From: a virus
DNA length: 64,000 nt
Direction: 5' to 3' (one strand)
Virus record (IMG/VR): IMGVR_UViG_3300042261_001452
Span: 22,640-86,639 of that record
In this document: in pieces, positions 266 through 64,000 of the stretch
Position numbering within the stretch: position 1 is the first letter of the stretch
Layout of the letters: each line of letters opens with the position of its first letter
Made by a program: the position numbers and the translations under genes
The notes under the pieces: model-generated
What the model was told of the DNA's origin: nothing
The model's database searches: none
The model's input: only the letters and a program-made list of their open reading frames with translations

Positions 266-337
266 GATTTTCTCCTCCTAATTGCCATTATATCACAAAA
301 TAGAAGAATATCTTGAAAAAAAATTATTATGAAATAA

Positions 338-802: not shown

Positions 803-811
803 TTATATCTC

Positions 812-1576: not shown

Positions 1577-1671
1577 ATTTTATATTTCTTTTTTTAAAAA
1601 ATATATCCCTTCTTATATTGGGTAGGATTTTTTATAATATTCGTAGAAAAAGATATAAAGGAGAAAAAAAT

Positions 1672-2043: not shown

Positions 2044-2744
2044 AAATCTTTAAAATATCTCAAAAAGTAACTGAAAAACTATTTGACCTTTATGATGTAG
2101 TATGGAATGCTAATTCTATCGAAGAACTTAAAAATGAATTAGTTAAAAATAATATTAATTTTAATGAGTTAAATCTTAAAGGAAATATTGTGCTTACTAT
2201 TAATCATAATGGTAAGAAACAAGTTATTGATGATAGTCTAAATATAAAAGAAGCAACTGAATGGATTTGGAGCATTTTAGATCATCAGTTAGATCAATAT
2301 ATTGGAGAAGATAACGAAGATTTTAATGAAAAATTTTGGAAAAATGTTTGTACGCCATATGGCAATAATGAACTATATCATGCTACTCGCAGTAAAAATG
2401 TTGACGAAATAAAGGCTCGTGGATTATTAAAGATGAATAAGTCCAGAGGAATTAATAATAAATCAACAGGAAATGCTGTTTTTACAAGTTTAACAGATAC
2501 AGATATTGATTCTTATGGAGAAATTATTATTAAAATAGATATGTGCCAAATGAAGAAAGATGGATACATGCCTGAAGTTAGTATGGAAAAACCAATTGAA
2601 GAGGCAAATTTAAGAAATCAGTTAGCATGGAAAATAGGAATAAAAGAATTTAATGCAATTGATGAATATTCTTCTGAGGGATTATTTGAAACAACTGTTG
2701 TTATTTATGGAAATATACCTCCAAAATATCTTTATTTTGCATAA
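2040..2744 (+). CDS. ADP-ribosyltransferase-fold protein (Tpt1/KptA-like C-terminal domain)
   Basis: LYHAT...IKARGL...AVFTS...YG.IIIKID...GNIPPKYL; MKIFKISQ leader. Confidence 0.6.
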   Translation: MKIFKISQKVTEKLFDLYDVVWNANSIEELKNELVKNNINFNELNLKGNIVLTINHNGKKQVIDDSLNIKEATEWIWSILDHQLDQYIGEDNEDFNEKFWKNVCTPYGNNELYHATRSKNVDEIKARGLLKMNKSRGINNKSTGNAVFTSLTDTDIDSYGEIIIKIDMCQMKKDGYMPEVSMEKPIEEANLRNQLAWKIGIKEFNAIDEYSSEGLFETTVVIYGNIPPKYLYFA

Positions 2745-2745
2745 T

Positions 2746-3390
2746 TTAGATATTAATTCTTATTCCGCTTTTCCAACCATTATAGGCACTATTCTTATCT
2801 ATTACCATCACAACTTTTTCATTAAAGTCATATTTTTTAATCTTCTTTCTTCCCCACTTCCCATATGTCTCATCAGTTAATTGGAAAAAAGCCTTCCCAT
2901 TTTTATTAACAAATAATCTTACCCCGCCATGATCTAAAACTAGTTTAATTAATTTGTTTGGATGGGAAGATAAATTCGCATGCATCGCAAAAGTATCAAT
3001 GTCTAAAAGAGAAATAAATAAGTCCATATTCTTCTTTGCAATAGTACAATGATTAGGCCCACTAACTAAGATGCCTTTTGAAACTATCCAATAATTGCCT
3101 AATAACTTTTCAGATTTTACTTCCTTATTTACCTCTCCTATAATATCTTGTCCAGTAATCTTTTTCCATAAAAATCTAATGTTTTCAGCAATTATCTTTA
3201 ATTCTCCCAAAGATAAATCATTTTCTACCTGCCTTGGAGTAGGTAAATTATAAATAAGCTTTCTTAATTGCTCTTCTCCCACTTTATAACTCTTGGAATA
3301 TAACTTAAGAGATTCAACGTAGGCTGCTAAATCTTTTGCAGATGGCATCTCCCCATTCTTTATCGCAGCTAAACTTATTATATTATTCAC
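2746..3390 (-). CDS. Hypothetical protein
   Basis: 214-aa ORF overlapping the end of the upstream gene. Confidence 0.7.
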   Translation of the reverse strand: MNNIISLAAIKNGEMPSAKDLAAYVESLKLYSKSYKVGEEQLRKLIYNLPTPRQVENDLSLGELKIIAENIRFLWKKITGQDIIGEVNKEVKSEKLLGNYWIVSKGILVSGPNHCTIAKKNMDLFISLLDIDTFAMHANLSSHPNKLIKLVLDHGGVRLFVNKNGKAFFQLTDETYGKWGRKKIKKYDFNEKVVMVIDKNSAYNGWKSGIRINI

Positions 3391-5386
3391 TAATATTCTC
3401 CAATAATTTAGGCTTTATTATTCTCTCCTTTGGAATCATATCAATTACCTTTTGATAATTCTCAGGTGATAAATGATACACCCTAGAGGCAACCTCTTTA
3501 ATAACTTCATCTTTTGTTCCAGTTTCTAACATTAAAAGTAATCCCAAAACAGATGCATTCAATATTATATCAAAGAAATTCTCTTCGGCCTTATTAAATA
3601 ATATCAGTAACGTTTTATTGTTTCTAAGCTTTGGATTTATCAATAATATTTTAAAAAGAAATAAAGCCATATTCTTTACTACATCCTCATCAGCTTCGTA
3701 ATTTTCTAATAGATCTTCTACTATTGTTAAAGCTTCTATTTCTTTATTCTCTTTTAACAGTGTTTTAATAGTAAATATCTTTTTGTTTAATAAATGCTTA
3801 GAACAAATGGTTCCCGAAGGTTTTCTTTTCTTTGTCTGAGCGGTTTTGAATTTACCAAATTTATCTTTAAGCAATAAAATAGCTTCTTCTTTAGTGATAT
3901 CTGGATTATCATCTTTTAAACCTTTTACAAACTCTGTAATTTCATTCATGTGTGGACCGGGCTTAATATTAAGAGCTTGCATGATCTCATTTCCATTAAG
4001 AATAGGCGCAACCTTTTCCTTACTACCAATTGATAAAGAACTTACAGCAGACTCTAATTGTTGTTTTAAATTATTATATTCCGCTATTGTATCCTCACTA
4101 ACGGTTTTATCTTTAGAATATGCATCAGCAGTAGAAAGATTTAAAATATCCATCCATTGAAGAGAGGCTTCTCCCATATTTCTAATAAATTTTCTAAATG
4201 CCTTAGCTCCACTATCGTCCCTTGTAAAGGAATGAAGCTTCATATGATTCTTAACTATATCAGAAACTTCTTTTATATAAGGATCTAATTTTAAAAACTT
4301 TAATATATGCTTAACAATTTCTGCACTCTCATCTTCATGTCCAATATAACTCGTATATCCTTTTTCATGCCCCGGATATTTATCTGTTCCAATCCTTTTT
4401 GTTTGTATTTCTGAATATAATTTCCCTATATCATGAGTTAAAGCCGCTAATATCATTACCACTCTTCTCTCTCCCTCATATTCAGGATGATTTTTTAATA
4501 GATTATTAATTACTTGAAAGGTATGTCCCCATAAAGATAGCTTATGATTAGGATTATTTTGATCCATATCTAAATCAGCCATTTTGCCTTCATATTTAGT
4601 TCCAACTAAAGATTCTTTCAATAGCTCTTGAAGCAATCCAGTATCTTTAAGGAGAGATATACCTATTTCTGAATTTGGATTTTTAAATATCTTTTGTAGC
4701 TCTTGCCCAATTCTTTCTTTAGATATTTTCTTTTTAATATCTTCTATTAATTCAGGATTCTTCATGGCTTCATATGTTTCAGAATGAATTGTAAAGCCAA
4801 GTTGAGAGGCAAATCTTATACATCTAAATATTCTTAATGGATCTTCCTTAAATGTCATTAATGGATCTAATGGAGTCCTGACAGTCTTTGCTATAATATC
4901 TTTTATGCCTTTCCCCGTAAAGTCTTCTACTAAATTAGTATTTAAGTTATAAAAAAGAGAATTCATTGTAAAATCTCTTCTTAAAGCATCTTCTTCTGGA
5001 GTTGCTGCCATAACCTCTGGAACTCTAGAATCATCCTTATAAATCTCTGTTCTCGCTTGAGCAAAATCTACTTCAATAACTTTTCCACTAGAAGGCAATG
5101 GAATATAGGCTTTAGCTGTTGTAATATTTTTTGACTTCTCTGGATTAGATTTAATAATATGAGCAGGATTAGCTGATAAATAATTACTAACTAGATTGGC
5201 TATTTGTTCTCCACTTAAATTATCTACCATAATATCAATGTCAGAAGCTTCTTTCCCTAAAAGCTTATTTCGTATCCATCCTCCAGCAATTCTTAAAGTA
5301 GTATTAGGAGCTTTTTCTCTAATAATTGTTTTTAGAATATTAAAAAGCTCTTTTTCTTCTGAGGTGATATTGATATTTGAATTCAT
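3383..5386 (-). CDS. cca: Class II tRNA nucleotidyltransferase (CCA-adding enzyme) with HD domain
   Basis: GGWIRN, DIDI, RTEIY..SRVP, EEDALRRDFTMN, EDPLRIFR motifs; HD domain HT...HDIGK...H...D. Confidence 0.9.
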   Translation of the reverse strand: MNSNINITSEEKELFNILKTIIREKAPNTTLRIAGGWIRNKLLGKEASDIDIMVDNLSGEQIANLVSNYLSANPAHIIKSNPEKSKNITTAKAYIPLPSSGKVIEVDFAQARTEIYKDDSRVPEVMAATPEEDALRRDFTMNSLFYNLNTNLVEDFTGKGIKDIIAKTVRTPLDPLMTFKEDPLRIFRCIRFASQLGFTIHSETYEAMKNPELIEDIKKKISKERIGQELQKIFKNPNSEIGISLLKDTGLLQELLKESLVGTKYEGKMADLDMDQNNPNHKLSLWGHTFQVINNLLKNHPEYEGERRVVMILAALTHDIGKLYSEIQTKRIGTDKYPGHEKGYTSYIGHEDESAEIVKHILKFLKLDPYIKEVSDIVKNHMKLHSFTRDDSGAKAFRKFIRNMGEASLQWMDILNLSTADAYSKDKTVSEDTIAEYNNLKQQLESAVSSLSIGSKEKVAPILNGNEIMQALNIKPGPHMNEITEFVKGLKDDNPDITKEEAILLLKDKFGKFKTAQTKKRKPSGTICSKHLLNKKIFTIKTLLKENKEIEALTIVEDLLENYEADEDVVKNMALFLFKILLINPKLRNNKTLLILFNKAEENFFDIILNASVLGLLLMLETGTKDEVIKEVASRVYHLSPENYQKVIDMIPKERIIKPKLLENISE

Positions 5387-5392
5387 ATTCTT

Positions 5393-5770
5393 TTAGAATT
5401 TTATTGGCGAATTAGATAAAGCAAAATCCGCTAAATCATCGGGAATAACTTTCGGTTTATGAGGAGAACAATCTTTCCACCCACGCCAAAAAGCTCTCCC
5501 AATTGGAAACTTCTTTATCTCGGGATTCAGCATCATCCATTCTCCTTTTATATGTTCTTCTTTTGATTCCCAACCACGAAAATATGCATCTTCAATTTTT
5601 TGTTTAAAATTAGGATCATTTTTATCAATCTTAGAAGTAACAGATTGTTCTTTTTTTTGTTTAAAATTAGGATCATTTTTATCAGTCTTAGAAGTAACAG
5701 ATTGTTCTTTGAACCAACCTGCCTTTTTACCCATTTCTTCCCACTGACTCTTACTTAGCTTTATTTTCAT
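5393..5770 (-). CDS. Hypothetical protein with MKIKLSKSQWEEMGKKAGW leader and 19-aa internal duplication
   Basis: KEQSVTSKxDKNDPNFKQK twice (57-bp tandem repeat at about 5596-5710). Confidence 0.75.
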   Translation of the reverse strand: MKIKLSKSQWEEMGKKAGWFKEQSVTSKTDKNDPNFKQKKEQSVTSKIDKNDPNFKQKIEDAYFRGWESKEEHIKGEWMMLNPEIKKFPIGRAFWRGWKDCSPHKPKVIPDDLADFALSNSPIKF

Positions 5771-5982
5771 ATCTTCTCTTCCTTTTTAATTTGTCTTATT
5801 TGAATTTTACCACCACAGTTTTTACATTTTTTAAATCCATATTGATCTTTAATTACTTTAGGATTTACTTCTCCGCAATATTGACAATATCTTTCTATAT
5901 TCTTCTTTAGAAAGTCTTTCAATAATTCACTGGGAGACGTTTCCTCTTCTTGATTATCTTGCGATATTCTAAATATTCTCAT
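5767..5982 (-). CDS. Small zinc-ribbon protein with MRIFRISQ leader
   Basis: CQYC...CKNC; start moved to 5982 because the late promoter overlaps the upstream ATG. Confidence 0.7.
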   Translation of the reverse strand: MRIFRISQDNQEEETSPSELLKDFLKKNIERYCQYCGEVNPKVIKDQYGFKKCKNCGGKIQIRQIKKEEKI

Positions 5983-6041
5983 ATAAAATAATTCAAGAAA
6001 CATTATTTTATTCCTTTAGTTTTATCGCTATTGGCAAATTT

Positions 6042-6254
6042 TTATTCGATAATTGGAATCGCTGGAGTTAGACCATCTTTAAAATTTTTGTTTAAATGTA
6101 TTTCTAACATTTTTTCTTTTATGACTTTAGCATTTTGACCGATATAAAACCAATAGATAAGAGTTAATCTTTTAGGATTTTCACCACATTGATTAACATA
6201 ACTGGATGATTTGGTTAATTCATCAGATGTAATGCTAACTATTGGAGGTATCAT
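6042..6254 (-). CDS. Hypothetical protein
   Basis: 70 aa, GAGGAG RBS. Confidence 0.55.
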   Translation of the reverse strand: MIPPIVSITSDELTKSSSYVNQCGENPKRLTLIYWFYIGQNAKVIKEKMLEIHLNKNFKDGLTPAIPIIE

Positions 6255-6316
6255 ATTTTACTCCTCAAATGTGGATAAAGATAGATGTTCCTATTTCTTT
6301 CAAAAAATAGAAAAAC

Positions 6317-6342
6317 AAAAAAGAGGGTTTTTCAACCCTCTT
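6317..6342 (-). terminator. Rho-independent terminator after the capsid gene
   Basis: AAGAGGGTT-TTTC-AACCCTCTT stem with A-tract on its left (U-tail on - strand). Confidence 0.75.
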
Positions 6343-6371
6343 CCTTGTTTAATTTGAAACTTTATTCAATC

Positions 6372-7238
6372 TTAGGAACCAGCAGTAACTGTAATCTTGG
6401 CAACTGCATAGTTGTTGATGATTACAATACCAATATCCTCATAGATTACCCAGCCCAAACGAAGCTTCTTTGGATCGTCAGCGGGAAGTACGGTGATGTC
6501 CTGACGAACAGGGAATGCACCAACGTATTCTGCGGGGGCTAGTAGGAATACTGTATCTGATGGACACTTAGACGATACGTGAATATCGGCTGTGAAAATG
6601 TGACCAAATAGACCAGTTGTAAGAACTTCCTTCTGAGTGGCCTCATCATAAACAGTCTTACCCCAGTTACGAATATCAATGTAACGAAGAGCGTGTGTTA
6701 CGACCTTGCCAACAGTTAGATCATGCTGCTCAATTGTACCGAAAGCTGAATTAAGAGCCTGAACGGTTAGAGCGCCACCAGTAGAAACTACGGTATTAGC
6801 CGCAGTAACAGCAGCGTTAATAGCGTTGAAGATGTTAAGATCTTCTTCCTTCTGGATGGCTTCCTTAGCCTTAATCTGAGCGCGATCTACAATATAGAAA
6901 CGGCGAGCCTTAACTTCCGATAGACGGATGGTGGGGTTCGTAGCAATTTCGAATGTAGGAACTAGGATTTCCTCACCTTCGGTGAATCCATCTGGTACTG
7001 CGCCTCTACGAGAAATTACGAATGCGGTCTGTCTTACGTCCTTCTCATAACGGGCATAAGCGCCTTGTGGTAGTTCATCTACCATTAATAGTTTACGACC
7101 TACTGCTTGGTATTCTAGAGCGCGGCGGATAGGTTCTACCATTGCTTGTGCAAGGGCGACTCTTCCATCGGGTGTCTCTAGAGCCTGTGCAATTAGGGCT
7201 TCTCTCTCTGCATTTACTGCTCTCTTATCAATAGCCAT
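6372..7238 (-). CDS. Major capsid protein, HK97 fold (encapsulin-sized)
   Basis: Gene order protease/scaffold > decoration > MCP; strongly biased codon usage; motifs LAQAMVEPIRRALEYQAVGRKLLMVDELPQG and LGWVIYEDIGI. Confidence 0.85.
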   Translation of the reverse strand: MAIDKRAVNAEREALIAQALETPDGRVALAQAMVEPIRRALEYQAVGRKLLMVDELPQGAYARYEKDVRQTAFVISRRGAVPDGFTEGEEILVPTFEIATNPTIRLSEVKARRFYIVDRAQIKAKEAIQKEEDLNIFNAINAAVTAANTVVSTGGALTVQALNSAFGTIEQHDLTVGKVVTHALRYIDIRNWGKTVYDEATQKEVLTTGLFGHIFTADIHVSSKCPSDTVFLLAPAEYVGAFPVRQDITVLPADDPKKLRLGWVIYEDIGIVIINNYAVAKITVTAGS

Positions 7239-7296
7239 TTTATTTCTCCTTTTTTTGTAACTTATAGGGGTGTTAAGTAGCCTATAAACTTATTTA

Positions 7297-7827
7297 TTAG
7301 ATTAACAACTTAATTTCGATGTAGTTGTTAGCAGTACCACTAGGGGACTGACCAGCAAGAGCTGCATCGCCGTTAATGTTTACGCCGGGAACTCCAGAAG
7401 GATAGCTTCCAGCAGTCTTGGTTAGAACTGCAACAACAGTTGAAGTGCTATGGGTATCTACTGTATCAAGAACGCCATTAACACCATATAGGCGGGCCAT
7501 AATGCTAGCACTTGCTACGTTAGCAGCAAATTGATCTGTAGCAAACTCACCACCGCTATGATATACTGTCATCTTGCCGCTTGCCTTGGTCTCATCATAG
7601 TAATCGGAAGCGCGACCCTGCCAGCCAGAAGAAACTCCGGGCATTGAAGAAACAGAGGTGCTCTTTGAGTCACCAGCTAGACCATATGGCTGAATGTTTG
7701 TGCTGCTCTGTAGAACGACATTGCCGTTTGAATCTAGAGAAACAACTTGACCTTCTAGAATCGAGGTCTGACCTGTAGCAACTGTTTTCTCAGCAGCAAC
7801 TACGAAAAAATTTGGAATTATTGCCAT
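7297..7827 (-). CDS. Capsid decoration/cement protein
   Basis: Small beta-rich G/S/T/A protein directly upstream of MCP; ASGKMTVY..GGEFATDQF. Confidence 0.65.
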   Translation of the reverse strand: MAIIPNFFVVAAEKTVATGQTSILEGQVVSLDSNGNVVLQSSTNIQPYGLAGDSKSTSVSSMPGVSSGWQGRASDYYDETKASGKMTVYHSGGEFATDQFAANVASASIMARLYGVNGVLDTVDTHSTSTVVAVLTKTAGSYPSGVPGVNINGDAALAGQSPSGTANNYIEIKLLI

Positions 7828-7998
7828 TTTTTTATCTCCTTTTAAGATTATGTTTTTTGTACTTTCGTTTACCTATTGGCTGCTCTATTTTCTTTCTCAT
7901 CTATATCAATCAATTTAATTCTTTGTTACCGTCCTTACTGCTCCATTTTTATTCCACTTTATATTCTCAGAGAATTATTGCCAATTTATGTATATTTG

Positions 7999-8022
7999 TT
8001 CTAAAAATATTAAGAAATTCCT
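7999..8022 (-). promoter_or_regulatory. Late-type promoter AGGA-N17-GAA driving decoration/MCP
   Basis: - strand AGGAATTTCTTAATATTTTTAGAA; same motif precedes about 16 other genes. Confidence 0.6.
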
Positions 8023-8095
8023 TCTATAAAAAATAAATATTTCACTAAATGTCAAAACAATCAATTTTATTGGTGTTTTTAATGTTTTTAGAAAC

Positions 8096-8128
8096 AAAAA
8101 GGGCTTGGGAATTTTATTTCCCAAGCCC
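8096..8128 (-). terminator. Rho-independent terminator after protease/scaffold gene
   Basis: GGGCTTGGGAA...TTCCCAAGCCC stem plus A-tract. Confidence 0.8.
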
Positions 8129-8176
8129 TAATATGTAATTATTGATTATTTTTTTATATTTATTTACTCAATATAT

Positions 8177-11100
8177 TTATTCGCCTTGATAGCCATATAT
8201 TGTAAGCTTCTGATCAAAATCTTTACTTCCGATTGTGAATGCACTAGCTAGCTTATCCTTAAGACCTTTACTTTCTGATTTGCTTTCTAGCATGATTGCA
8301 GGAATAGCATGACCAGCTTCATTGGTATCTGAGACTGTTGATGCGACTCTAGCGGCTGTCTTAACAGGGAAGAGTTTATCAGCTACTGAAGCGATCTTAT
8401 CAATTTCAAATGTTGATAGAGCCTTAATTGCACTCTCATAGGCGTCCATATCATTGGCTAGTCTGTTATTAGCAATTAGCCATGCTGCAATCTTAGTAGC
8501 CTGTTGCTCTCTAGCCTTAGCTATCTTAGAAACCTGATCCTCTCTTTGCTGGCGAACAACCTTTAACATTTCGTCATTAATTTCGGGCATATCCTTTTGA
8601 ATTTCCTTTTCATTACCCATATAAGCATTATTCATTGGTACATCTGGTCCCTTTAGAGGCTTATTAATTAGAGAATCAGCATCCTTTTCTTGACCCATAT
8701 AGGCTTCTTGACGAGGAACATCTGGTCCCTTATTTGGTGTATTGATAGCAGAATCGGCATCCTTTTCCTTGCCCATATAGGCATCTTTACGAGGAACATC
8801 GGCATCCTTTTCTACTGTATCAACTACTTTCATCTGCTTGGCTTCTTTTGTAACATTCTTGTCTCCAGCGATAACAGTTCCCTTGATTTCATTATTAATG
8901 GCTGGCATACCCTTTTGAGTATTGACTTCATCGCCCATTAGAGAATTACCGACTGGTACATCTGGTCCTTTTAGTGGCTTATTAATTAGAGAATTAGCAG
9001 ATTGTTCCTGTCCCATATAGGCATCCTTACGAGGAACATTTGGGCTATTCATTTTCTTATTAATTAGAGAATCAGCTTCCTTTTCTTTGCCCATATAGGC
9101 ATCTTTACGAGGAACGCCAGCTTCAACATTATTTTCAATTGTCTTTACTAATGTTGGAGTCTTGGCAATCTTTACGATTTCCTCTCCTACCTTTAATACT
9201 CTGTGACTTGCCATAGCTTCAACCTCCTTTGCTGTATTATCAGCTTTTGCCTTGCATTCTTCGCAATCGGCTTTATTACATTCGCATTCCTTTTTGCAAA
9301 TTTCCTTGACTTCATTTTTTTCTTCTTTTTTCTCTTCTTTCTTCTCTTCTGACTTTACAGGAGCCTTATCAGTCTTAGCTTCTTTAACAATTTCTACTTC
9401 AACTTCGGCTTCCTTTAGAGCAGGAAGATCAGAGCCAATATCCTTTTCTAGCTCAGCTTCTTTAGCAGCTACAACTTTCTTTTGTGCGGCGGCTACAGCT
9501 TCCTGATCAATCTTTTGAAGAGTGATTAGGTCGTATTTAGTAAGTCTATCTTCTTTACCAGCTACTACATCCTTTCCAAAAGCATGGACATAGATATTGT
9601 CTGCATGTTCAGAAGCTTTTGCTTTCTTAATGCAACCACAAATGTCACTTGCTTCCTTTAGATTATAGCCTTGCTTTTTCTGATCAGCAATGCATTCATC
9701 CATTGGGTCTTTTTGTAGAGAAGCTTCTGCTAGTCTTATCATATCCTTTACTTTTGTAAAAGCTAGTCTTTGGAGACTCTTACATACGCAATCTGCTAGA
9801 GCCTTACCCTTGCAAGGCCCGAAAGTCGCAACAGTATTTCCACCATAGCTTCTTGCCATTCTTTCAATACAATTTGCCATTGGGAAAGAATCCTTATTCT
9901 GAGTAGCGGCCTTTAGCATTTTGGTCATCTTTAGTGAAGATGCAAACTTAGCAGCCTTTTCTTCGCAACCTTGACACTTAGTATCATGTCTAAGATCCCA
10001 CTTGACTCTTAGATAGCTTTCTTTTGGATTTGCAGCAGCAATTAGAATATCTTTTACTACTTCAGTCTTGCAAGAAGGACAAGTGAATTCTGTATGACCA
10101 TCATCTTCCTTAGAGGCTGTGCAATTCTTTTTACCACAGGCAGGACAGACATGACCATGCGCCTTTACATTGCTACCAATTCTACGGATTGAACCCTTAT
10201 CAATTCTCGTCTGGGCAGCTACAGGTAGGGCTGGAACTTCTGCTGGAGCTTCTGGAGCCTCAGCACCTTCTGGTTCACCTTTCCCCGGAGTCTTACCTAC
10301 GCTTACGGTAGGCTTAATAATCTTAAACTCAACTTCTTTCTTTAGAAGAGCCTCATATTCTGCACCACACTTCTGACAAGTACCCTTAATATTTCCTTTG
10401 TCATTTGTAACATCAACATCAGATGTTCCGCATTCTGGACAGATTGTCCAAGGCATTTGTTGCTCGCCTACAGTTGGGATGTCTTCTGCAATTTCCTTCC
10501 CTTCTGCTGGGGCATCCATTGTAAGTGATTGGATTGCGTCGCCTTGTGGAGCAGCGCCCGGAAGAGCCTGTTCAGGAGCGCCAGAAGCAGCTACGCCACC
10601 GGGAGTACCGGGAACACCACCACCCATAGGAGACTGAGCTATTTTCTTAAGAGCTACTTTCTTTGAGGCCATAGTAGGAGCCATTGCGGGAGCGGCACCT
10701 GTGGGAGCAGCAGCGGGAGCGGCAGGTGGTAGGGCAGATAGAGCATCTACTCCTTCTCCTGTCATATCGCCTTCTGGAACAATCTCTTCTGTTTCGGGCT
10801 GAGTTGTATCGCCAACAGGAATTTCTACTTCTTGATCGCCTTCATCTGTTTGGACTGCAATCTGAATAGTATCACCACTAATAGTAACATTGGTTACAGC
10901 AGCTAGCTTAATATTCTGAGAGGCAAGTGCTCCTTTAGCAAAAGATCTTATATCCTTTTTAAAAGTTGCGCTTTCTTTCGTACTTCCAAGTTCAGAAAAA
11001 TTTGTTTCAATAACAGTATCAGCGCCATTTAACCCTTTTGGATTAAGAATGTTATTGGCTTGTCTTTTTTGACCTTTTTCAAGAGCAGCTAGAATTTCTT

Positions 11101-58400: not shown

Positions 58401-58677
58401 TAAGGAATCCCTTAAAGATAGAATTCTAATATTTGCCTATGCCCCTAAGGAATCCCTTTGCTTTTAGAAATTAGATTTTTATATAGAATAAGGAATCCCT
58501 TAATATCCAGAATTTAAAATTTTATTTTTTTTATTTACGCCCTAAGGAATCCCTTAACTTTTAGAATCTAGATTTCTATTTCCCCACACTATTATCCCAC
58601 CCCTATAAAATTCTTATAAATATTTATTATTGATTTAAAATAAAACCTTCGTCAAACTAGTCATAAGGCATCCCTTA
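58401..58677. repeat. Five iteron-like TAAGG(A/C)ATCCCTT repeats
   Basis: Copies at 58401, 58446, 58489, 58543, 58664 in AT-rich non-coding DNA. Confidence 0.85.
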
Positions 58678-58959
58678 CTAAAGGAAATCGAAAATGATTC
58701 AGACCCCCCTTGACTCAGGCTAATCCCATAAAAAAAAGATATAGAGTACAATCTTTCCTCATTAAACTATAGGCAATCTCTATAGGCATAGTAGAATATC
58801 ATAGGGAACATAGGTATAAGTTGAAAGTACAAACTAGGGTAGACCTAGATCCCAGCAAAGTAACCTCCCCCTTTTCCTTGCCTTCAGGAAGGACAAGGGA
58901 ATATTGTACTCTAGGTTTGCAACTGATTTCCATGGAGGTTTCTTTTGTACTCTTAACCT

Positions 58960-59268
58960 TTACTTCTTACAAAGCAAACATGTGGCAAAGGGAGGCTTAG
59001 AGTTAAGTTGTAGTCCGACACCTAACGACTTTAACTCGTAACCTTCAGGGATTACAGGTGGTGGAACCTTAAAACCTGCATACCATTTGCTGTCGGGGTG
59101 GCGGCAGTTAATATCTATTTTTCCATCAGGGGTAAGGATAATTCCCCCATTATAGCGATAGGAAACAGGATAGGTTACTTCCACGCTCCCTTTCTTTTCT
59201 AGGGTCTTTTTTTGTTTATCTGTAAGGTTAATACCGGATTGAGGGAAGGGGAAAAAATCATCGTTCAT
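58960..59268 (-). CDS. Hypothetical early protein
   Basis: Start MNDDFF after GGAGG/AAGGA; TTGACA-N17-CATACT promoter at 59325-59353. Confidence 0.65.
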   Translation of the reverse strand: MNDDFFPFPQSGINLTDKQKKTLEKKGSVEVTYPVSYRYNGGIILTPDGKIDINCRHPDSKWYAGFKVPPPVIPEGYELKSLGVGLQLNSKPPFATCLLCKK

Positions 59269-59748
59269 AATAGGTTTTCCTTTTCCTCCTGTTGAGAGAA
59301 GCCTTTTCTCTCTTTGATAAAAGCAGTATGGCACAAAAGAATGTGGATGTCAACTTCTATTTTTTACCGTCAATATAAATGAACGACGTTGAGGTCTCAT
59401 CCTTGTCCCAAAAGAAACTACTCTCTTTTGTACTTTATATAAATGAACGACATTGAGGAGTCTCATCATCTCATCCTTGTCTCCTAAGAAACTATTTTCT
59501 TTTGTACTTTATATATTTTTAAGAGTACAATTTTATCTCAAACGGCTCGTGGTTATCTCTAACGGCTCGTGTGCTACGTCAGCGTTGTTAGATGGTCTTA
59601 ACGTTCGGTTGGGTTGTGGTTAATTTGTACTCTTAATAATAGAGGGAGCCTAAATAAGGGAGATAGCCTTTTTGTACTCTTAATGGCAAAGAAGGGAATA
59701 AATGTTTTTTGTACTCTGAATAAAAAAATAAGCCAGACTTCTTGAAGG

Positions 59749-59782
59749 AAAAAAGGGTATCCTCTTTTGGGAGGATACCCTT
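59749..59782 (-). terminator. Terminator, near-identical to 63059-63092
   Basis: AAGGGTATCCTC-TTTTGG-GAGGATACCCTT with A-tract. Confidence 0.8.
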
Positions 59783-59838
59783 AAAACTGGATAGGGATTG
59801 GTATGACGGCCAACCGACTCCAATTTTGAGAAGCCGGA

Positions 59839-60327
59839 TTAGCTTGCGAGCATCGCCTTGCGTTCGGCCAACTCCTTCTCCTGCTGCTCGATCTCGATGA
59901 TGGCGGCGTCACGCTTGGCCTCGATGGTCGTATCGAGAACCTTACGAGCATCCAGAAGTTCGGCGACGGTCACATGCTCGAAAATCTTCTGGAAGTCAAC
60001 CTTCTTCCCCTGTCCACCGCCCTTGAGAGTGTACTTGCCCGCGTTGACCGCATCCAGACGATCACGGACTTCCTTCTGGATGTCGGCAGGCAGCTTGCCA
60101 CACTTCTCATTGAACCACGCTTCACGCTGATCGGGGGTCATGCCGACAACCGCAGCCGTAATGCGCGGAATGCCAGCGGTGGACTTCTTCTGTGGCGCGG
60201 CGGGCGCGGGCGGTTCCAGGACGACATATCCGGCGTCGGGCGCGGCGGGCGCGGCGGGCGCGGCGGGCGCGGCGGGGGTGGCGGGGGTGGCGGGGGTGGC
60301 GGGGGTGGGGGTGGACTTCTTGGCCAT
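59839..60327 (-). CDS. GC-rich early gene with (PAT/PAA)n N-terminus and coiled-coil C-terminus
   Basis: AAGGA RBS before MAKKSTP; TTGACA-N17-TACATT at 60389-60417; 9-bp tandem repeats at about 60236-60310. Confidence 0.75.
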   Translation of the reverse strand: MAKKSTPTPATPATPATPAAPAAPAAPAAPDAGYVVLEPPAPAAPQKKSTAGIPRITAAVVGMTPDQREAWFNEKCGKLPADIQKEVRDRLDAVNAGKYTLKGGGQGKKVDFQKIFEHVTVAELLDARKVLDTTIEAKRDAAIIEIEQQEKELAERKAMLAS

Positions 60328-60784
60328 GGTATCCTTCTTTCTTTGGTTTTGCGCTTTGGGTTTATCCCATTGCTTCTTTGATGAGAACAATGTATCAGTT
60401 CTACTCGGGACTGTCAACAGGTTTTTTAGACTTTTTTTTAGTCGTTTTGTTCTGTGACGATCCCTTGTATCCCTTCAACGCGATCATCATTACATATTGG
60501 AGGGCTTATGTCAATAGGGGAAATAAGATTTCTTTAAGAGTACAAAGTTTAAGCTTGAACTGGTCAGGAGTATGATATGAATGCTAGTAGAGTGCGGGGG
60601 TGGGATAAAATTGTACTTTAGAAAAGCAAAGGCTTATGACGAAGTATGGTTCTTGCTTTATACTCTATATTATCTAGTGGGTAATAGTTAGTTTGTACTT
60701 TAAAAAACTAGATGCAGACTGAAAAAACTCTAATATGTCATTATTAACAACCGCCCATATTTTTATATTCATATCTCTGATATG

Positions 60785-60813
60785 AATATAACTGTTTTTG
60801 GAGGATATGTCAA
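60785..60813 (-). promoter_or_regulatory. Sigma70-type promoter TTGACA-N17-TATATT
   Basis: Near-consensus; no long ORF immediately downstream. Confidence 0.6.
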
Positions 60814-60867
60814 GACATTTTTTTTTGTACTTTATATTTTTTTAAGAGTACAAAATTTGGAGAAAAT

Positions 60868-60906
60868 ACCCGGCGGAACCTCCTTCGACTCCGGGTTCCG
60901 CCGGGT
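60868..60906. repeat. 13-bp GC-rich inverted repeat followed by CCGCCGGGTGGAACCTG direct repeats
   Basis: ACCCGGCGGAACC-N13-GGTTCCGCCGGGT. Confidence 0.8.
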
Positions 60907-61210
60907 GGAACCTGCCGCCGGGTGGAACCTGGCGTCGGGTGGACTCTGTAGGAGTTTTTTGTACTTTATATTTTTTTAAGAGTACAAAGATTGGAGAGAG
61001 TCGCCGTATGGACCCTGTAGGAGGCGGAGGTGAAGGCTGGTGGAGGTGGTGAACGCTGGAGTACCAATGACTTTTGTACTCTGAAAAGACAGGAAGAAGT
61101 TTATTAGGCTCTTATGATTTTGTACTTTAGAAGCAAAGAGTAGACGATAATAAGTTTGTACTCTAATCTTTTAGTAGGCTTCAATCTAAAGTTTGTACTC
61201 TAATAAAACA

Positions 61211-61241
61211 AAAAACTAGGGTTTTTAAGCCCTAGTCTTTT
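61211..61241 (-). terminator. Terminator after 61265-61783
   Basis: ACTAGGG...CCCTAGT with A-tract. Confidence 0.7.
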
Positions 61242-61264
61242 GTAAGTCTTTGGAATAGAGTGTA

Positions 61265-61783
61265 TTACACCTCTTCCAAAACTTGTTCTTCCACGGGGGT
61301 TTCGGTTTTTGCCTCAACCGATTCTCGATTGATGCGGAGGATGGTTTCCACCGCACAGGAGAAGCAGGCTTCGGGCTTGCTCTTCGTTAGTTCCTTGGCG
61401 AGAAGCAGGCTTTCGACAGCCTCACGATCAACCGGTTTCCCGTCAAGAAAGAATTGCGAGTCGGCATGGGACTTGCTATTGGTGCTGGTGTAGAGCCGCA
61501 GGTACAGCTTGCCGCTTTTGGTCGCCCGTAGCAACCACGGATATTCGACCCATTCCATGCCCCTGAGACCCTGATTTTCGGCGGGCAGGGTGCCGTTCTC
61601 CCTTGCTTCCACGATCTTCTTCTGGTTGTCGTATTCGATGCCAACCCGCCCTACCATCTTGACACGCTTTGTAATGACGGCAGTGATTCCCTTGAATGTT
61701 GAGCAAGGCCGCTCCCATTCAACCACGATGTTTGCACCGGCTTGAGTATTTTCGATAGCTTGCTTGACCTGTTCCAGTTCCAT
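61265..61783 (-). CDS. GC-rich hypothetical early protein
   Basis: GGGAG RBS; TTGACA-N17-TATTAT at 61829-61857. Confidence 0.75.
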   Translation of the reverse strand: MELEQVKQAIENTQAGANIVVEWERPCSTFKGITAVITKRVKMVGRVGIEYDNQKKIVEARENGTLPAENQGLRGMEWVEYPWLLRATKSGKLYLRLYTSTNSKSHADSQFFLDGKPVDREAVESLLLAKELTKSKPEACFSCAVETILRINRESVEAKTETPVEEQVLEEV

Positions 61784-62141
61784 GACTTGCTCCCTTTGAC
61801 TTTTGATATGATCCTGTCAACGCCCCTAATAATAGGAGAAAAAGGGGATGATGTCAAGAGGGAAAAATAAAAAATGTTGAGAGTACAAACTTTGGGCAAC
61901 TGCGAGCTAGGATAACGAGGCAAGAAGGAGTGAGCCAAGCCAATTATCCAGTGAGTAGGGGTGGGTGTGTGGGAGAGAGGCGGATTTTGTACTCTATAAA
62001 ATAAGATATAGTGAATGCTTTAAGAGTACAAAGTGGATAAGCCAGTAGGCAGGCATTAGGGTTAGAGGTAGTAGCACATAACAGTGTATAGATTTTTGTA
62101 CTCTATAACAGTGGAGAGAAGAGTGTTATAGAGATTGTACT

Positions 62142-62729
62142 TTATACTTCTTTGGCATAAGCGAAAACAAGGAGAGCCTTACAATATTTACAACGATAGA
62201 CAAAACCACGAAGGATCTTACCATGAAGAATCTTACTTATGCCATGTTCCCGACAAGAACACTTATAGATATAGGGAGAGCCAATGGTTCTGCTATAAGT
62301 GGAGTGAGCAGTTGTTTCCAGTCCCATAATCCGCATGATGTTCTTCCAGATTTTCCCATGCTTGAGACAGGTTTTTGCATAGGGTTTTGTAATCCTATAT
62401 TTGTTATCTTCCTTGCTATGAGTAATGATACCTTTATTAAGAAGGTAATGAAACTCGAAAAAATGAGCGATCTCATGGGGGATAGTTCTGCTAATGAATC
62501 TATCTCTATAAGCAGCGAAGTGGGAAAGGTTATATTTAATTGTTCCAATTTGATAACAGGCTCTACCAGCGACTAAACCTGTTAAAGAGGTGTCAATTTT
62601 TGGATAAGGATAGTTTGTCTTAAAGACATAATTAAACTTATCCCACCATTGCATAGTTAAGGCTAGAAGCTCTTGGTAGGCATGAAGAGCTTTGTTGTCT
62701 GCGGATTGAACAGGCTGAGTCATTTCCAT
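62142..62729 (-). CDS. SprT-like zinc metalloprotease
   Basis: AGRA, TIPHEIAH, HGKIWK..M, YKCSC...YRCKYC; start uncertain; promoter TTGACA-N17-TACTAT at 62761-62789. Confidence 0.85.
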   Translation of the reverse strand: MEMTQPVQSADNKALHAYQELLALTMQWWDKFNYVFKTNYPYPKIDTSLTGLVAGRACYQIGTIKYNLSHFAAYRDRFISRTIPHEIAHFFEFHYLLNKGIITHSKEDNKYRITKPYAKTCLKHGKIWKNIMRIMGLETTAHSTYSRTIGSPYIYKCSCREHGISKILHGKILRGFVYRCKYCKALLVFAYAKEV

Positions 62730-63058
62730 AAATGAAACCTTTTTCTTCCTTGTTGCCTTCATAGTATAGTAAGAGAGGGGGCTTGTCAATGATATTTTTT
62801 AGAAAACTTTAAGAGTACAAAATGTGGGCTAGAGTTTGCCAAGCGAGGTTGCCACAGCCCCAGAAGACGGAGAACAAGGTTATGAGAGTTGGTAGGGGGA
62901 ACGGATTTTGTACTCTAAAAGAGTTTGGGAATTATTTAGCGATTACATGTTTAGAGAATAGGTTATTATACTCTATACTATACAGTGGATGAGTTATTGT
63001 ACTCTATATTATACAGTGGATAAAAATACTATTTTGTACTCTAGGATATATAGTGAAT

Positions 63059-63092
63059 GAAAAAAGGTATTCTCTTTTAGGAGGATACCCTT
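63059..63092 (-). terminator. Terminator, near-identical to 59749-59782
   Basis: AAGGTATTCTC-TTTTAG-GAGGATACCCTT. Confidence 0.75.
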
Positions 63093-63101
63093 CGATGAAC
63101 T

Positions 63102-63257
63102 TTACTTGAACAGGAACGTCCACCATGACGCATTGTGATACCTCTGATGGTATGCGTTCCACTTCAAGCCCACGTATCCGCCAATCGCGGCAGCGAAAAT
63201 CAGTCCGACCGCAACAGCGGCTAGCACGGACAACACCTGATTCAACCACTTCTTCAC
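63102..63257 (-). CDS. 51-aa single-pass membrane protein (not in ORF track)
   Basis: GGAGG RBS, GTG start, MKKWLNQVLSVLAAVAVGLIFAAAIGGYVGLKWNAYHQRYHNASWWTFLFK*; promoter TTGACG-N17-AATACT; terminator follows. Confidence 0.75.
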   Translation of the reverse strand: MKKWLNQVLSVLAAVAVGLIFAAAIGGYVGLKWNAYHQRYHNASWWTFLFK

Positions 63258-63337
63258 TCTTTGCCTCCGTTGCTACCTGGTTTGCTCTACATGGGAGTCA
63301 GTATTTCACATAAGCCGGTTTACGTCAACAACTATTT

Positions 63338-63718
63338 TCAACTTTTTTTCTTGGACTTGGCGTGGGCCTTCATGGGACAGTAGTTGTCGAGTTGCTCTGC
63401 TTCTGCCACCTTGAAGCATTGCGGCCATCCACGCCGGTCAGCTTCTGCCGCTGCTGCGTCTTCAGCCGCTTCCGCGTTGTCGGCAGATACCGTAAGGCTG
63501 CGAGTTTCATCACCGTGTTTGTCGAAAAAGTTTACTCTCCAGTATTTTTCTGGAACTTGCTGCACCAAATTGCGGATGGCACGCATATCCTCCATCGGCA
63601 AATCTAATGCCGGTTTCAGCAGTTCGTAATCAGGGATGGCCCCGCTTTTGGCATTGATGTTCCACAGCCGTATGGCTGCTAGAACGATCTTCTTTTCTCT
63701 GTCGCTAAGATTCTTCAT
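63338..63718 (-). CDS. GC-rich hypothetical early protein
   Basis: AGGAG RBS before MKNLSDRE; TTGATT-N17-TATAAC at 63759-63787. Confidence 0.7.
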   Translation of the reverse strand: MKNLSDREKKIVLAAIRLWNINAKSGAIPDYELLKPALDLPMEDMRAIRNLVQQVPEKYWRVNFFDKHGDETRSLTVSADNAEAAEDAAAAEADRRGWPQCFKVAEAEQLDNYCPMKAHAKSKKKS

Positions 63719-63830
63719 TGTCTTTCTCCTGTAAGGATTACTCATTGAAAACAAAGATGTTATAGCCTATTTGGAATGAAAAATCAATATGTTTTTTTCA
63801 TTTTTTTTCTAAAGTACAAAATTGCGGAAC

Positions 63831-63890
63831 GCCCAAAAAGGGGCTCCAGCTTACTCCGCTTCGCTACGAAGCTGAGCTTGATCGTTGGGT
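63831..63890 (+). mobile_element. Integron attC-like site (60 bp, one mismatch in R'')
   Basis: GCCCAAA-N5-GCTCCAGC...GCTGAGC-N6-GTTGGGT with one extrahelical base. Confidence 0.6.
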
Positions 63891-64000
63891 GTATTACGTT
63901 CTAACCGCCTTTTCCCCACCGCTCGCCGCAGTATGTTCTCAGCGAATAACCCCGCCAATGCTTGGTGGCACAGTGATTCGGCATCCCGAGGACATACATC

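Follow-up and report, generated by a model that had tools for sequence, protein, structure and literature searches.

In this study, we examined a cluster of short repeated sequence boxes in phage DNA and relate them to the genes that they surround. The boxes most likely serve as boundary and control elements of an island of self-contained cassettes transcribed by the host polymerase. More specifically, we tentatively favour, at somewhat short of an even chance, the reading that a lineage-specific DNA-binding protein, a regulator or insulator, docks at them much as at stoperators, and that they double as recombination joints like those of PeSL (promoter-early plus stem-loop) regions. The window, that is, the whole stretch analysed, comprises 64 kb (22640-86639 of an 86,639-base record). 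This record is a fragment of a giant freshwater phage, with an island of about 5 kb of small self-contained genes at its end.

The word TTGTACTYT matches the window exactly 32 times, against 1.55 expected from 100 dinucleotide-preserving shuffles (sd 1.24, largest 5), none of which reached 32. All but one of these matches lie within 58743-63819, the single outlier being found at 7857. The whole record holds the same 32 (22 on the plus strand, 10 on the minus strand) and its first 22.6 kb none, while the pattern read backwards, as a control, matches once in the 86,639 bases. Motif density, a check proposed in the earlier note, is concentrated in one island and uneven across the record. That note had claimed about 31 boxes in 58743-63820, in agreement with our 31 exact matches; a one-mismatch search adds two copies of TTATACTCT, at 60658 and 62966, both within arrays, giving 33 island boxes. 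It had also noticed a single box in the preceding 58 kb, which is correct apart from its position (7857, not 7856); all ten of its minus-strand coordinates are exact, whereas on the plus strand 4 of 21 are exact and 17 are one base low. Avoidance of open reading frames, as it had proposed, holds for all 33 boxes (P = 2.6e-10, in a 5077-bp island that is 51.3% non-coding by our own gene calls), one of them overlapping a stop codon by 2 nt. Likewise, the frequent 36-47 bp spacing is borne out, most same-orientation neighbour spacings of up to 80 nt falling in or near that range (31, 35, 36, 37, 37, 37, 39, 41, 46, 47, 47, 58 and 74 nt).

The cassettes of the island are monocistronic, rich in GC and located on the minus strand; most have a TTGACA-N17-TAnnnT promoter and three a hairpin terminator. 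The features of the island, with boxes on the minus strand called forward and those on the plus strand backward, are as follows.

58743-58751, minus strand: forward box, reads TTGTACTCT in gene direction (exact motif match)
58824-58832, minus strand: forward box TTGTACTTT (exact motif match)
58904-58953, plus strand: two backward boxes (58904, 58945), beginning 6 nt past the stop of the 102-aa gene
58960-59268, minus strand: cassette gene, 102 aa, no family; 50% identity over 72 aa to an L245 ORF
59325-59353, minus strand: sigma-70-like promoter TTGACA-17-CATACT, 102-aa gene; no box within 60 nt upstream
59428-59436, plus strand: backward box closing the first copy of a 74-bp direct repeat present twice
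59502-59530, unstranded: tight inverted pair, a backward box first, then 11 nt of A/T and the forward box
59625-59717, plus strand: array of three backward boxes (59625, 59672, 59709), past the terminator of the 162-aa gene
59753-59782, minus strand: intrinsic terminator, 162-aa gene
59839-60327, minus strand: cassette gene of 162 aa with a GC of 0.65 and an N-terminus rich in Pro, Ala and Thr; L230, L232 and L233-235 have homologues
60486-60514, minus strand: sigma-70-like promoter TTGACA-17-AATGAT, 162-aa gene
60537-60545, minus strand: forward box, 22 nt upstream of the -35 TTGACA (promoter 60514-60486)
60611-60701, plus strand: three backward boxes in an array, at 60611, 60658 (single mismatch) and 60693
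60785-60813, minus strand: sigma-70-like promoter TTGACA-17-TATATT; only a 32-aa ORF downstream
60825-60853, unstranded: tight inverted pair, forward box 31 nt upstream of the -35 at 60813 (ssDNA fold z = -4.3)
60959-60987, unstranded: tight inverted pair
61074-61201, plus strand: array of four backward boxes (61074, 61120, 61156, 61193), the 172-aa gene's terminator lying 14 nt away
61208-61243, unstranded: two-way intrinsic terminator, 172-aa gene
61265-61783, minus strand: cassette gene p172, 172 aa, GC 0.53; query for islands in other phages
61829-61857, minus strand: sigma-70-like promoter TTGACA-17-TATTAT, 172-aa gene
61880-61888, minus strand: forward box, 22 nt upstream of the -35 (promoter 61857-61829)
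61987-62031, unstranded: looser inverted pair (backward 61987, forward 62023)
62096-62143, plus strand: two backward boxes (62096, 62135), the 62135 box overlapping the SprT-like gene stop by 2 nt
62142-62762, minus strand: cassette gene, 206 aa, SprT-like zincin (PF10263, E 3e-7, 30.7 bits; cut-off 25.6)
62761-62789, minus strand: sigma-70-like promoter TTGACA-17-TACTAT, SprT-like gene
62812-62820, minus strand: forward box, 22 nt upstream of the -35 (promoter 62789-62761)
62908-63042, plus strand: four backward boxes in an array, at 62908, 62966 (single mismatch), 62997 and 63034
63066-63089, minus strand: terminator-like hairpin after the 51-aa gene, one stem mismatch (by eye; absent from the program's terminator list)
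63102-63257, minus strand: hydrophobic 51-aa ORF, second gene of the rightmost cassette
63338-63718, minus strand: cassette gene, 126 aa, no family
63811-63819, minus strand: forward box, 23 nt upstream of TTGATT-N17-TATAAC (63787-63759; partly by eye)

An attC-like hairpin at 63826-63895 folds weakly. The label "early region" given by the earlier note was inference, not observation; the cassettes are probably early and anti-defence.

Boxes are scattered over about seven intergenic regions in both orientations. Four cassette promoters are each faced by one box, 22-23 nt upstream of the -35 and centred near -62, and each gene then has two to four boxes of opposite orientation, past the terminator where one exists. 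A -35 hexamer (at least 5/6 of TTGACA) follows exactly 22 nt downstream of 3 of the 10 forward boxes, with TTGATT at 23 nt and TTGACA at 31 nt for two more; the intervening spacers are mutually unrelated in sequence. The boxes thus placed lie upstream of the core promoters and do not overlap them, unlike the sites of classical repressors, and this speaks against a regulator.

In the mechanism we propose, one sequence-specific protein of the phage lineage would recognise all boxes. At -62 it could contact host RNA polymerase like a class I regulator and move promoter output up or down, and on backward boxes the same protein might form an orientation-dependent, stoperator-like roadblock or insulator, which would block read-through and antisense transcription between adjacent cassettes. 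At inverted pairs the protein may sit as a dimer or form a bridge. Since an identical short sequence flanks every cassette on both sides, the boxes could also act as recombination joints at which cassettes are gained, lost or replaced, as is seen in a sister lineage and may hold for the window. Several findings count against such a regulator: none of the island genes matched a DNA-binding family, 23 of the 33 boxes lack a neighbouring promoter, the clear promoter at 59353 lacks a box within 60 nt, and array spacings of 31-58 nt are not whole helical turns. Conservation of the core is also stricter than usual for regulator sites, and an enzyme, for example a recombinase, would suit it as well.

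The box has a 9-bp core, or about 14 nt with flanks (T-W-W-ARAGTACAA-A on the other strand). It is letter-perfect in 31 island copies, the DNA separating them is unrelated, and no flank consensus was found past about 3 nt from the core in either orientation among the window boxes. It is highly improbable that the boxes are functionless remnants of repeated duplication of one intergenic module. Duplication clearly produced the three tight inverted pairs and the two 74-bp repeats, and the sister contigs L295 and L296 differ in their number of 55-bp box units; nevertheless, a perfect core amid spacers diverged to random, together with the emergence of the pattern around different boxes in at least seven other contig groups, requires selection on the core.

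This recurrence, which the earlier note did not foresee, came from homologues of the 172-aa gene, found in many phage contigs, some with an equal layout around different boxes. The same architecture in related phages, which that note had wished to see, therefore exists as a layout but not as a shared box. TTGTACTYT is not enriched in four relatives found via the portal protein or in Bacillus phage G; the boxes are lineage-specific. Four box families keep a fixed distance to a -35-like hexamer (9, 12 or 13 nt, some copies one turn further). Counted as box copies with such a hexamer at the given distance, the contigs give 18/29 at 12 nt and 3 more at 22 nt for the L262 box GGTAATACC, 10/12 at 9 nt for the L265 box CACGCCAGAA, 11/13 at 9 nt in L259, 8/11 at 13 nt in L254, and 4/9 at 13 nt plus 2/9 at 23 nt in L271. 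Steps of 10 bp are consistent with helix-face dependence, and two families have palindromic, dimer-site-like cores (GGTAWTACC and TGTAWTACA). L245 has 33 copies of the box TAGGAGTAA within 6 kb. These are found alongside TTGACA-N16-TATAGT promoters and terminators, and they form inverted pairs as well as 45-bp arrays. The L245 box is most like that of the window (common TACTC core), a likeness that could be chance (about 2% by our estimate); no fixed box-promoter distance was found in it, which counts against the regulator.

These distances also bear on whether the boxes are promoters, or promoter specificity elements, read by an RNA polymerase or sigma factor that the phage encodes or injects, a view that we consider distinctly unlikely. 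Forward boxes would then be a second, phage-dependent promoter of each cassette, and antisense transcription from the backward arrays would run into the gene before them and silence it later in infection. Single-element promoters for phage sigma factors exist (phiEco32, T4 late promoters), and the motif resembles phage-specific promoters in being strict, asymmetric, lineage-specific and limited to one gene class, with an orientation bias of 23 to 10 among the 33 island boxes. Further, the L245 box leads to a -10-like TATTA 6 nt downstream, with arrays aimed at genes, and in L265 both forward and backward boxes precede full -35/-10 pairs. However, no cassette lacks a host-type promoter close to consensus, tight pairs that face each other across 11 nt would make poor promoters, and nothing downstream of the window core is conserved past about 3 nt in either orientation. 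The position 9-13 nt upstream of a -35-like hexamer in four families makes the box an upstream element there rather than an independent promoter. Searches for Sigma70_r2, T7-type polymerase and other DNA-binding families in the island genes found none; nor did those for Sigma70_r2 or a T7-type single-subunit polymerase in the 86.6-kb record, a weak argument, as this is about 22% of the genome and one search's control matched nothing.

Comparison of L295 with L296 revealed the boxes, again unforeseen, to be breakpoints of cassette exchange. Internal ends of homology blocks fall within 16 nt of a box centre in 8/14 cases on the L296 side and 6/14 on the L295 side, where box density predicts about 9%, and a 520-bp cassette swap and a 600-bp indel end inside boxes. 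Between L296 and L271, 5/6 block ends are near boxes. Such box-bounded swaps were seen in one other lineage only and not in the phage of the window, which counts against our preferred reading.

Exchange of this kind invites the view, unlikely but deserving weight, that the boxes are sites of a lineage-specific recombinase or transposase and the island a platform for cassette capture and exchange, a phage counterpart of an integron or shufflon. A forward box and a backward array would be the two ends of a cassette, and the three near-identical 29-bp tight pairs, with nothing between their arms, empty sites. Genes are indeed bracketed by opposite-orientation boxes, one upstream and two to four downstream, and Tn7 and Mu have similarly unequal multi-site ends. 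An enzyme fits the letter-perfect core, swaps and indels of the sister lineage terminate in boxes, cassette gene families turn up in varied combinations across other phages, and cassette genes have a much higher GC than the backbone (0.50 vs 0.33). Yet this offset is still present in the 172-aa family at 30-55% protein identity and is thus old, and gene direction is uniform within every island examined, which frequent inversion between inverted sites would not preserve. Fixed, 10-bp-stepped distances to the -35 are expected of transcription, not recombination, and in L245 the forward box comes after the terminator and not before the promoter; boxes are therefore not constant limits of cassettes. 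The segment swapped between L295 and L296 has flanking boxes of the same orientation and exchanges diverged alleles, for which short-homology recombination suffices without a dedicated enzyme. No recombinase gene came to notice in the 86.6-kb fragment.

It is also very doubtful that the boxes mark the first-entering end, where a protein would load on them to coat, protect, stop or pull in the DNA, or serve as origin, partition or packaging signals (iterons, centromere-like repeats). All that speaks for the former, an idea of the earlier note, comes from the contig end, to which the window island runs and away from which its genes are all transcribed. T5 and SPO1 keep early host-takeover genes at or in terminal repeats, and T7 DNA is pulled in by transcription. 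Assemblers, though, end contigs in repeat-rich stretches anyway, and in three large-phage fragments (G006, G007 and G008) the equivalent island is internal, with 11 kb or more between it and each contig end. It spans 20.4-36.5 kb in the fragment of 96 kb, 16.4-34.8 kb in that of 87 kb and 12.7-30.6 kb in that of 42 kb. The partition and packaging proposals of the same note found no support, as the boxes occupy some seven intergenic regions, not one or two clusters, in both orientations and at irregular spacings (31-58 nt).

Our preferred reading, regulator or insulator docking sites that double as joints, shares features with several known systems. Class I activator sites and upstream promoter elements (CRP at -61.5; in phages, phi29 p4, P2 Ogr and Mu Mor) are likewise specific sites at a fixed distance, in helical-turn steps, upstream of a sigma-70-type -35, but here only 5 of the 33 window boxes adjoin a promoter and the rest are orphan array copies. 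Integrons too show a row of unrelated small genes in one orientation with repeated, recombination-prone elements between them. Their cassettes are promoterless, whereas those of the island each have their own promoter, and their attC sites are imperfect palindromes of 57-141 nt conserved in structure rather than sequence, whereas the repeats here are short identical words. The stoperator-like silencing suggested in the earlier note is the closest functional analogy and is retained in our reading, although here the boxes are restricted to a single island and sit upstream of the core promoters, not over them. As far as the available part of the source describes them, Cluster A stoperators are more than 20 asymmetric 13-mers, bound by monomeric repressors at promoters and in intergenic space in an orientation-dependent manner (PMC9283540). 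To that extent, the L5 gp71 type is alike in that dozens of near-identical asymmetric sites occur around promoters and in short intergenic stretches, their orientation following the direction of transcription. Stoperators, however, belong to the immunity repressor of temperate phages and are genome-wide, with an operator that overlaps the promoter, while the island boxes are found in just 5 kb out of at least 86 kb, upstream of the -35 and in tandem arrays, a third of them reversed. The accessible portions of two reports describe PeSL in T4-type phages as a plastic region of small variable genes, each with its own early promoter and terminator, in which conserved short flanks are exchange points for unrelated cassettes between close relatives (PMC4122927, PMC2839356). 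The box-bounded cassette swaps in L295, L296 and L271 are alike in this respect. In PeSL, the conserved part is the host-type promoter and terminator themselves, common to T4-type phages, whereas here it is an extra, lineage-specific box of 9-14 nt that is also present in promoterless arrays and inverted pairs.

The boxes (TTGTACTYT) are strongly enriched and tightly confined. The 64-kb window contains 32 exact copies, against 1.55 expected from 100 dinucleotide-preserving shuffles (largest shuffled count 5; 0 of 100 reached 32), and 31 of them fall within 58743-63819, a span of about 5.1 kb in a record of 86.6 kb. The first 22.6 kb of the record hold no copy, and the reversed pattern, used as a control, occurs once in all 86,639 bases. 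The clustering described in the earlier note is therefore real; its minus-strand coordinates are exact, while 17 of its 21 plus-strand coordinates are one base low. A one-mismatch search adds TTATACTCT at 60658 and 62966, both in register within arrays, giving 33 boxes with an orientation split of 23:10. That boxes avoid ORFs is likewise borne out, as 33/33 are non-coding by the gene calls made here, although coding sequence makes up 48.7% of the island (P = 2.6e-10); a single box reaches 2 nt into a stop codon. They are distributed over about seven intergenic regions in 5 kb, in both orientations and at spacings of 31-58 nt. Each comprises a 9-bp core, or about 14 nt including conserved flanks, with an extended consensus on the other strand of T-W-W-ARAGTACAA-A-a-t (T at -3 in 29/33 copies) and random sequence past approximately 3 nt on either side of the core. 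Perfect cores amid diverged spacers contradict the idea that the boxes are functionless products of duplication, which we regard as very improbable.

From 58.7 kb to the contig end the composition shifts, with GC of 0.50 in genes and 0.38 in spacers as compared to 0.33 in the remaining window. The island genes are small, self-contained and without exception on the minus strand. Below, a box is called forward when TTGTACTYT reads in gene direction (minus strand) and backward when it reads the opposite way.

Features of the island and its borders (window coordinates)
58401-58677: five copies of quasi-palindromic TAAGGAATCCCTTA, the last being TAAGGCATCCCTTA, with starts spaced by 45, 43, 54 and 121 nt; they sit just left of the first box, in the A/T-rich spacer that precedes the 209-aa gene, and form a second repeat family, distinct from the boxes
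59380-59510: a 74-bp direct repeat in two copies, both closing with a backward box, upstream of the 102-aa gene's promoter
Minus strand: gene of 102 aa
59839-60327, minus strand: gene of 162 aa (GC 0.65) with a Thr/Pro/Ala-rich start, TPATPATPATPAAPAAPAAPAAP, encoded by a GC-rich tandem repeat (~60229-60300)
Minus strand: ORF of 32 aa
60853-60960, minus strand: GC-rich, ORF-less stretch between two inverted box pairs, with three GGTGGAACCTG-like repeats and a strong hairpin with a T-run behind it (ssDNA fold -26.8 kcal/mol, z = -4.6); apparently what is left of a lost cassette and its terminator
61265-61783, minus strand: gene of 172 aa
Minus strand: gene of 206 aa, SprT-like (PF10263, E 3e-7)
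Minus strand: genes of 126 aa and then 51 aa
63826-63895: attC-like hairpin directly after the stop of the ORF entering from the contig edge; it folds weakly (z -1.8 and -2.0), with outer pairing in the centroid only
Minus strand: ORF cut by the contig edge

Promoters of the form TTGACA-N17-TAnnnT are found on the minus strand in five spacers and TTGATT-N17-TATAAC in a sixth; there are three terminator hairpins, two from a terminator scan and one recognized by eye. Three promoters (boxes 60537, 61880 and 62812) have a forward box 22 nt upstream of their -35, a fourth (63811) has one at 23 nt and a fifth (60845) at 31 nt, and the intervening DNA is unrelated in sequence from promoter to promoter. 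At these 22-31 nt the box never covers the core promoter, and for just 5/31 exact boxes does a sigma-70-like core follow within 40 nt. Backward boxes follow each gene as two to four tandem copies, beyond the terminator or, if there is no hairpin, straight after the stop. The spaces between cassettes also hold three tight pairs of nearly identical sequence (backward box, 11 A/T, forward box) and a looser one. Scans of the island with Rfam and for tRNAs returned no matches. Several familiar identities were dropped: Bacteroidota-type promoters, given the presence of Shine-Dalgarno sites and TTGACA/TATAAT promoters; boxA/nut sites, as forward boxes lie upstream of promoters; Chi-like sites, owing to the mixed orientations; and REP elements, CRISPR-like arrays and NtcA or LexA sites, which misfit in spacing or sequence.

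The record, 86,639 bases long with the window as its final 64 kb, is part of the genome of a very large phage, 22% of it by CheckV. Over the portal region it shares 35% identity with gp14 of Bacillus phage G and approximately 70% with contigs of 58, 296 and 476 kb. No box enrichment was found in the four contig records related through the portal (G001-G004) or in phage G, the counts of box versus reversed pattern being 0 vs 4 in G001, 17 vs 16 in G002, 8 vs 6 in G003, 0 vs 0 in G004 and 21 vs 23 in phage G. The 58-kb G001 carries a homologue of the 209-aa neighbour gene, but with ordinary dense genes beside it and no island, and a k-mer search of the 296-kb G003 yielded a coding repeat only. 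In positions 1-9000 of G001 (locus L134), at least six consecutive genes open with the same MNWYK leader. IMG/VR scans for two boxes, inverted pairs or three boxes brought up only tandem repeats in coding sequence or unrelated arrays of GTAC boxes; neither scanning metagenomes for the inverted box pair nor comparing the island by blastn with 50,697 phage records gave a match. Non-coding GTAC-core arrays are present on unrelated IMG/VR phage contigs, as CTTATTGTACTTTnTACCATAA in seven copies each on L187 and L198 (25-103 bp) and as TTTTTTGTACTTTTTAT on L117, L179 and L200 (43-46 bp). Freshwater/lake runs of two studies contain the DNA itself, at 92-95% of the words sampled, and the source sample may be among them.

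Phages carrying the 172-aa gene gave a different picture from the portal relatives. This gene has 19 protein relatives, 66 metagenome loci and 11 IMG/VR loci; one of the proteins, 90% identical, is encoded on the contig of a close relative. Other cassette genes co-occur with it across loci: the 162-aa family (L230, L232 and L233-235), the SprT-like family (L261 and L265), the 102-aa family (L245), ArdC (five loci), DUF932 (seven loci) and GP88 (two loci, L262 and L296). L230, L233 and this record have backbone genes in common, for example a 621-aa ORF at 43% identity, which argues against an assembly chimera and for an island that truly adjoins these genes of the phage. A search of the contig records G006-G010 for the 621-aa neighbour protein found none, which tells neither way. 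Many of the 172-aa loci are densely covered by a short word of their own.

Words covering loci of the 172-aa gene (locus; word; copies)
L245; TAGGAGTAA; 33 in 6 kb
L256, L260-264; GGTAWTACC; 13-29
L286, L287, L303; TGTAATACA(A); 7-24
L271, L295, L296; TGTCATACAA; 9-27
L274; TGTAAGACAA; 7
L254/255; AACTCCACGCC; 11
L259, L265; CACGCCAGAA; 12-13
L258; ATCTTCTAA; 18
Other loci; extended -35 only, TTCTTGACAAA; repeated

Locus L245 mirrors the island described here. Its genes are monocistronic and GC-rich, with TTGACA-N16-TATAGT promoters and hairpin terminators; its boxes form inverted pairs and tandem arrays spaced at 45 bp, with an orientation split of 21:12 (here 23:10); and short tandem repeats rich in GC are present as well. 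Its box and ours have a TACTC core in common, which may reflect homology or chance. The earlier note had proposed looking for the same architecture in related phages; the layout does recur in the 172-aa loci, but with other words, and TTGTACTYT is not enriched in the portal relatives. What is new is a single grammar built around different words in at least seven other contig groups, several of them fragments of large phages. Dispersed 9-mers occurred in 20/46 of the 172-aa loci versus 41/180 control loci, a comparison that we set aside because the controls had been chosen for GTAC repeats and were A/T-rich.

Three whole contig records locate such islands within longer sequence. All 38 boxes of G007 lie at 20.4-36.5 kb of 96 kb, all 31 of G006 at 16.4-34.8 kb of 87 kb and all 28 of G008 at 12.7-30.6 kb of 42 kb, with no reversed-pattern occurrence in any of the three. 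The islands are discrete and internal, and CheckV completeness of 19-47% makes these records fragments of large phages too. This internal placement elsewhere weakens the earlier suggestions of packaging or partition signals or of loading sites on first-injected DNA, and a role as terminal, packaging, partition or origin elements, weakened in the same way, now appears most unlikely.

Across five loci representing four box families, most copies stand at a fixed distance upstream of a -35-like hexamer.

Distance from box to -35-like hexamer (locus; main class; one helical turn further)
L262; 18/29 at 12 nt; 3 at 22 nt
L265; 10/12 at 9 nt; none
L259; 11/13 at 9 nt; none
L254; 8/11 at 13 nt; none
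L271; 4/9 at 13 nt; 2 at 23 nt

The 22-23 nt seen in the window fits the class one turn further in these relatives. At such a distance from the -35, class I regulators and upstream promoter elements have their place. Two of the box families have palindromic cores. In L296 and L265, backward units of box plus -35 stand directly against the terminator of the gene before them and lack a -10, so that they are promoter halves. L265 also has, at 5219-5350, 6696-6810 and 8148-8260, complete box/-35/-10 promoters standing face to face about 103 bp apart with overlapping -10 regions, which could form a mutually exclusive switch between cassettes. That the boxes are themselves phage-specific promoters is a rather improbable reading, since no conserved element follows the core (nothing past approximately 3 nt on either side), the tight pairs stand face to face, and in the relatives the box sits upstream of a -35-like hexamer.

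The sister contigs L295 and L296 are 83-95% identical where aligned and differ by cassette-sized indels and replacements inside the island. Of the internal ends of their homology blocks, 8/14 on the L296 side and 6/14 on the L295 side fall no more than 16 nt from the centre of a box, as against expected shares that we estimate at about 9% from the density of boxes, or about 20% for ends restricted to spacers. In the alignments identity breaks off and resumes within the box; a 520-bp segment with diverged alleles of one small gene is bounded in boxes, and a 600-bp insertion lies between two boxes where the sister contig has one. Between L296 and L271, which is close to L295, 5/6 block ends fall within 16 nt of a box. 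These box-bounded swaps suggest a way in which such phages may renew their arsenal gene by gene. Dedicated recombination sites would explain why conservation is perfect, cassettes are bracketed, some pairs are empty and swaps occur, yet they leave out the promoter spacing and the uniform gene orientation, and we consider this explanation unlikely. The same joint behaviour has been described for the promoter-early plus stem-loop (PeSL) elements of T4-type phages (PMC4122927). If the boxes are protein-binding sites, recombination at them would be a by-product, as with PeSLs.

We thus come, tentatively and at somewhat short of an even chance, to the boxes as putative protein-binding sites with a regulatory or insulating function. 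Four observations make this the best reading: the word is strict and lineage-specific, its distance to the -35 is fixed and varies in steps of a helical turn, two families have palindromic cores, and orientation follows a grammar. Family, PDB sequence and structure searches of the island proteins gave no candidate binder. Pfam and PHROGs returned only the SprT-like match and no DNA-binding family, tblastn of two cassette proteins against plasmids found no match, and PDB sequence searches with three cassette proteins found nothing below E = 0.6. As modelled by AlphaFold (pLDDT 78), the 172-aa protein is mostly beta; Foldseek against the PDB gave nothing at E <= 0.001, and a wide VIA structure search reached a best Z of 6.4, for WYL/Sm-like barrels, which is inside the tool's stated noise band. 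Those weak matches are the barrels of PafBC, DriD, CapW and BrxR (Z 6.0-6.4, noise band), ssDNA-sensing domains in regulators of defence systems; a protein atlas look-up gave nothing usable for this protein. Neither the sigma-factor family PF04542 nor the T7-type polymerase family PF00940 was found in these 86.6 kb, about 22% of the genome; the control for PF00940 had no match in any sequence. Genes of the 172-aa family are GC-richer than their surroundings in 43/56 loci (L227-L303; mean +0.07), with offsets of +0.09 to +0.16 in most box-island loci and +0.06 in L271, and this offset is old, as the proteins are just 30-55% identical.

A bolder proposal, which we hold as speculative and on balance doubtful, is that giant phages own a dedicated, so far undescribed cassette platform in which a lineage-specific box and its cognate protein would both insulate and drive self-contained anti-defence-type genes (ArdC, DUF932, SprT-like, the 172-aa family) and catalyse or channel their exchange, a phage counterpart of the integron whose "address" evolves per lineage. 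If the favoured protein-binding reading holds, the boxes would provide a simple signature for early, probably counter-defence, islands of uncultured giant phages, namely a short word occurring dozens of times in a few kb of spacer around monocistronic genes, and would point to a regulator co-evolving with its site, which would offer a set of natural orthogonal protein-DNA pairs.

Our literature searches found no description of the architecture or, among the papers listed, of the motif: of 903 papers containing one of its four words, none of the 25 listed deals with phage regulation. Stoperator and PeSL site lists in supplements might refine the comparison with known systems. Integron arrays consist of promoterless cassettes with attC palindromes and an integrase, whereas most cassettes here have their own promoter and the boxes are not attC-like. 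Iterons and centromere repeats form one or two compact, regular direct-repeat clusters by an initiator or partition gene, unlike boxes spread over about seven intergenic regions in both orientations. The fixed, helix-phased distance to the -35 (22 nt three times and 23 nt once; 9, 12 and 13 nt in relatives, with minor classes 10 nt further) resembles that of a class I activator site or upstream element, although there each site serves a promoter, while here 5/31 exact boxes do. Stoperators of cluster A mycobacteriophages, proposed in the earlier note, number more than 20, each asymmetric, about 13 bp long and nearly identical to the others, and in this respect the 33 boxes of about 14 nt with flanks agree. 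The comparison fails where stoperators are spread genome-wide, one of them overlapping the early lytic promoter, as 32/33 boxes lie within 5.1 kb of the 86.6 kb and none over a core promoter. Stoperators keep one orientation relative to transcription; of the boxes, 23/33 face one way and 10 the other. Stoperators have a cognate immunity repressor encoded by a temperate phage; in this record of about 22% of a genome, no DNA-binding family was found among the island genes. PeSLs combine variable ORFs with an early sigma-70 promoter and a stem-loop terminator, much like the five TTGACA promoters, one TTGATT promoter, three hairpins and six genes found here, and indels and replacements between close relatives end in the element, as seen in a sister lineage (L295/L296/L271). 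They differ in recombining at the shared promoter or terminator itself, in contrast to a separate box that is absent from the portal relatives and differs per lineage. Stoperators (PMC9283540) and PeSLs (PMC4122927) are the nearest published kinds, and next to them the boxes would stand as putative cis-acting boundary and regulatory repeats of phage early cassettes.
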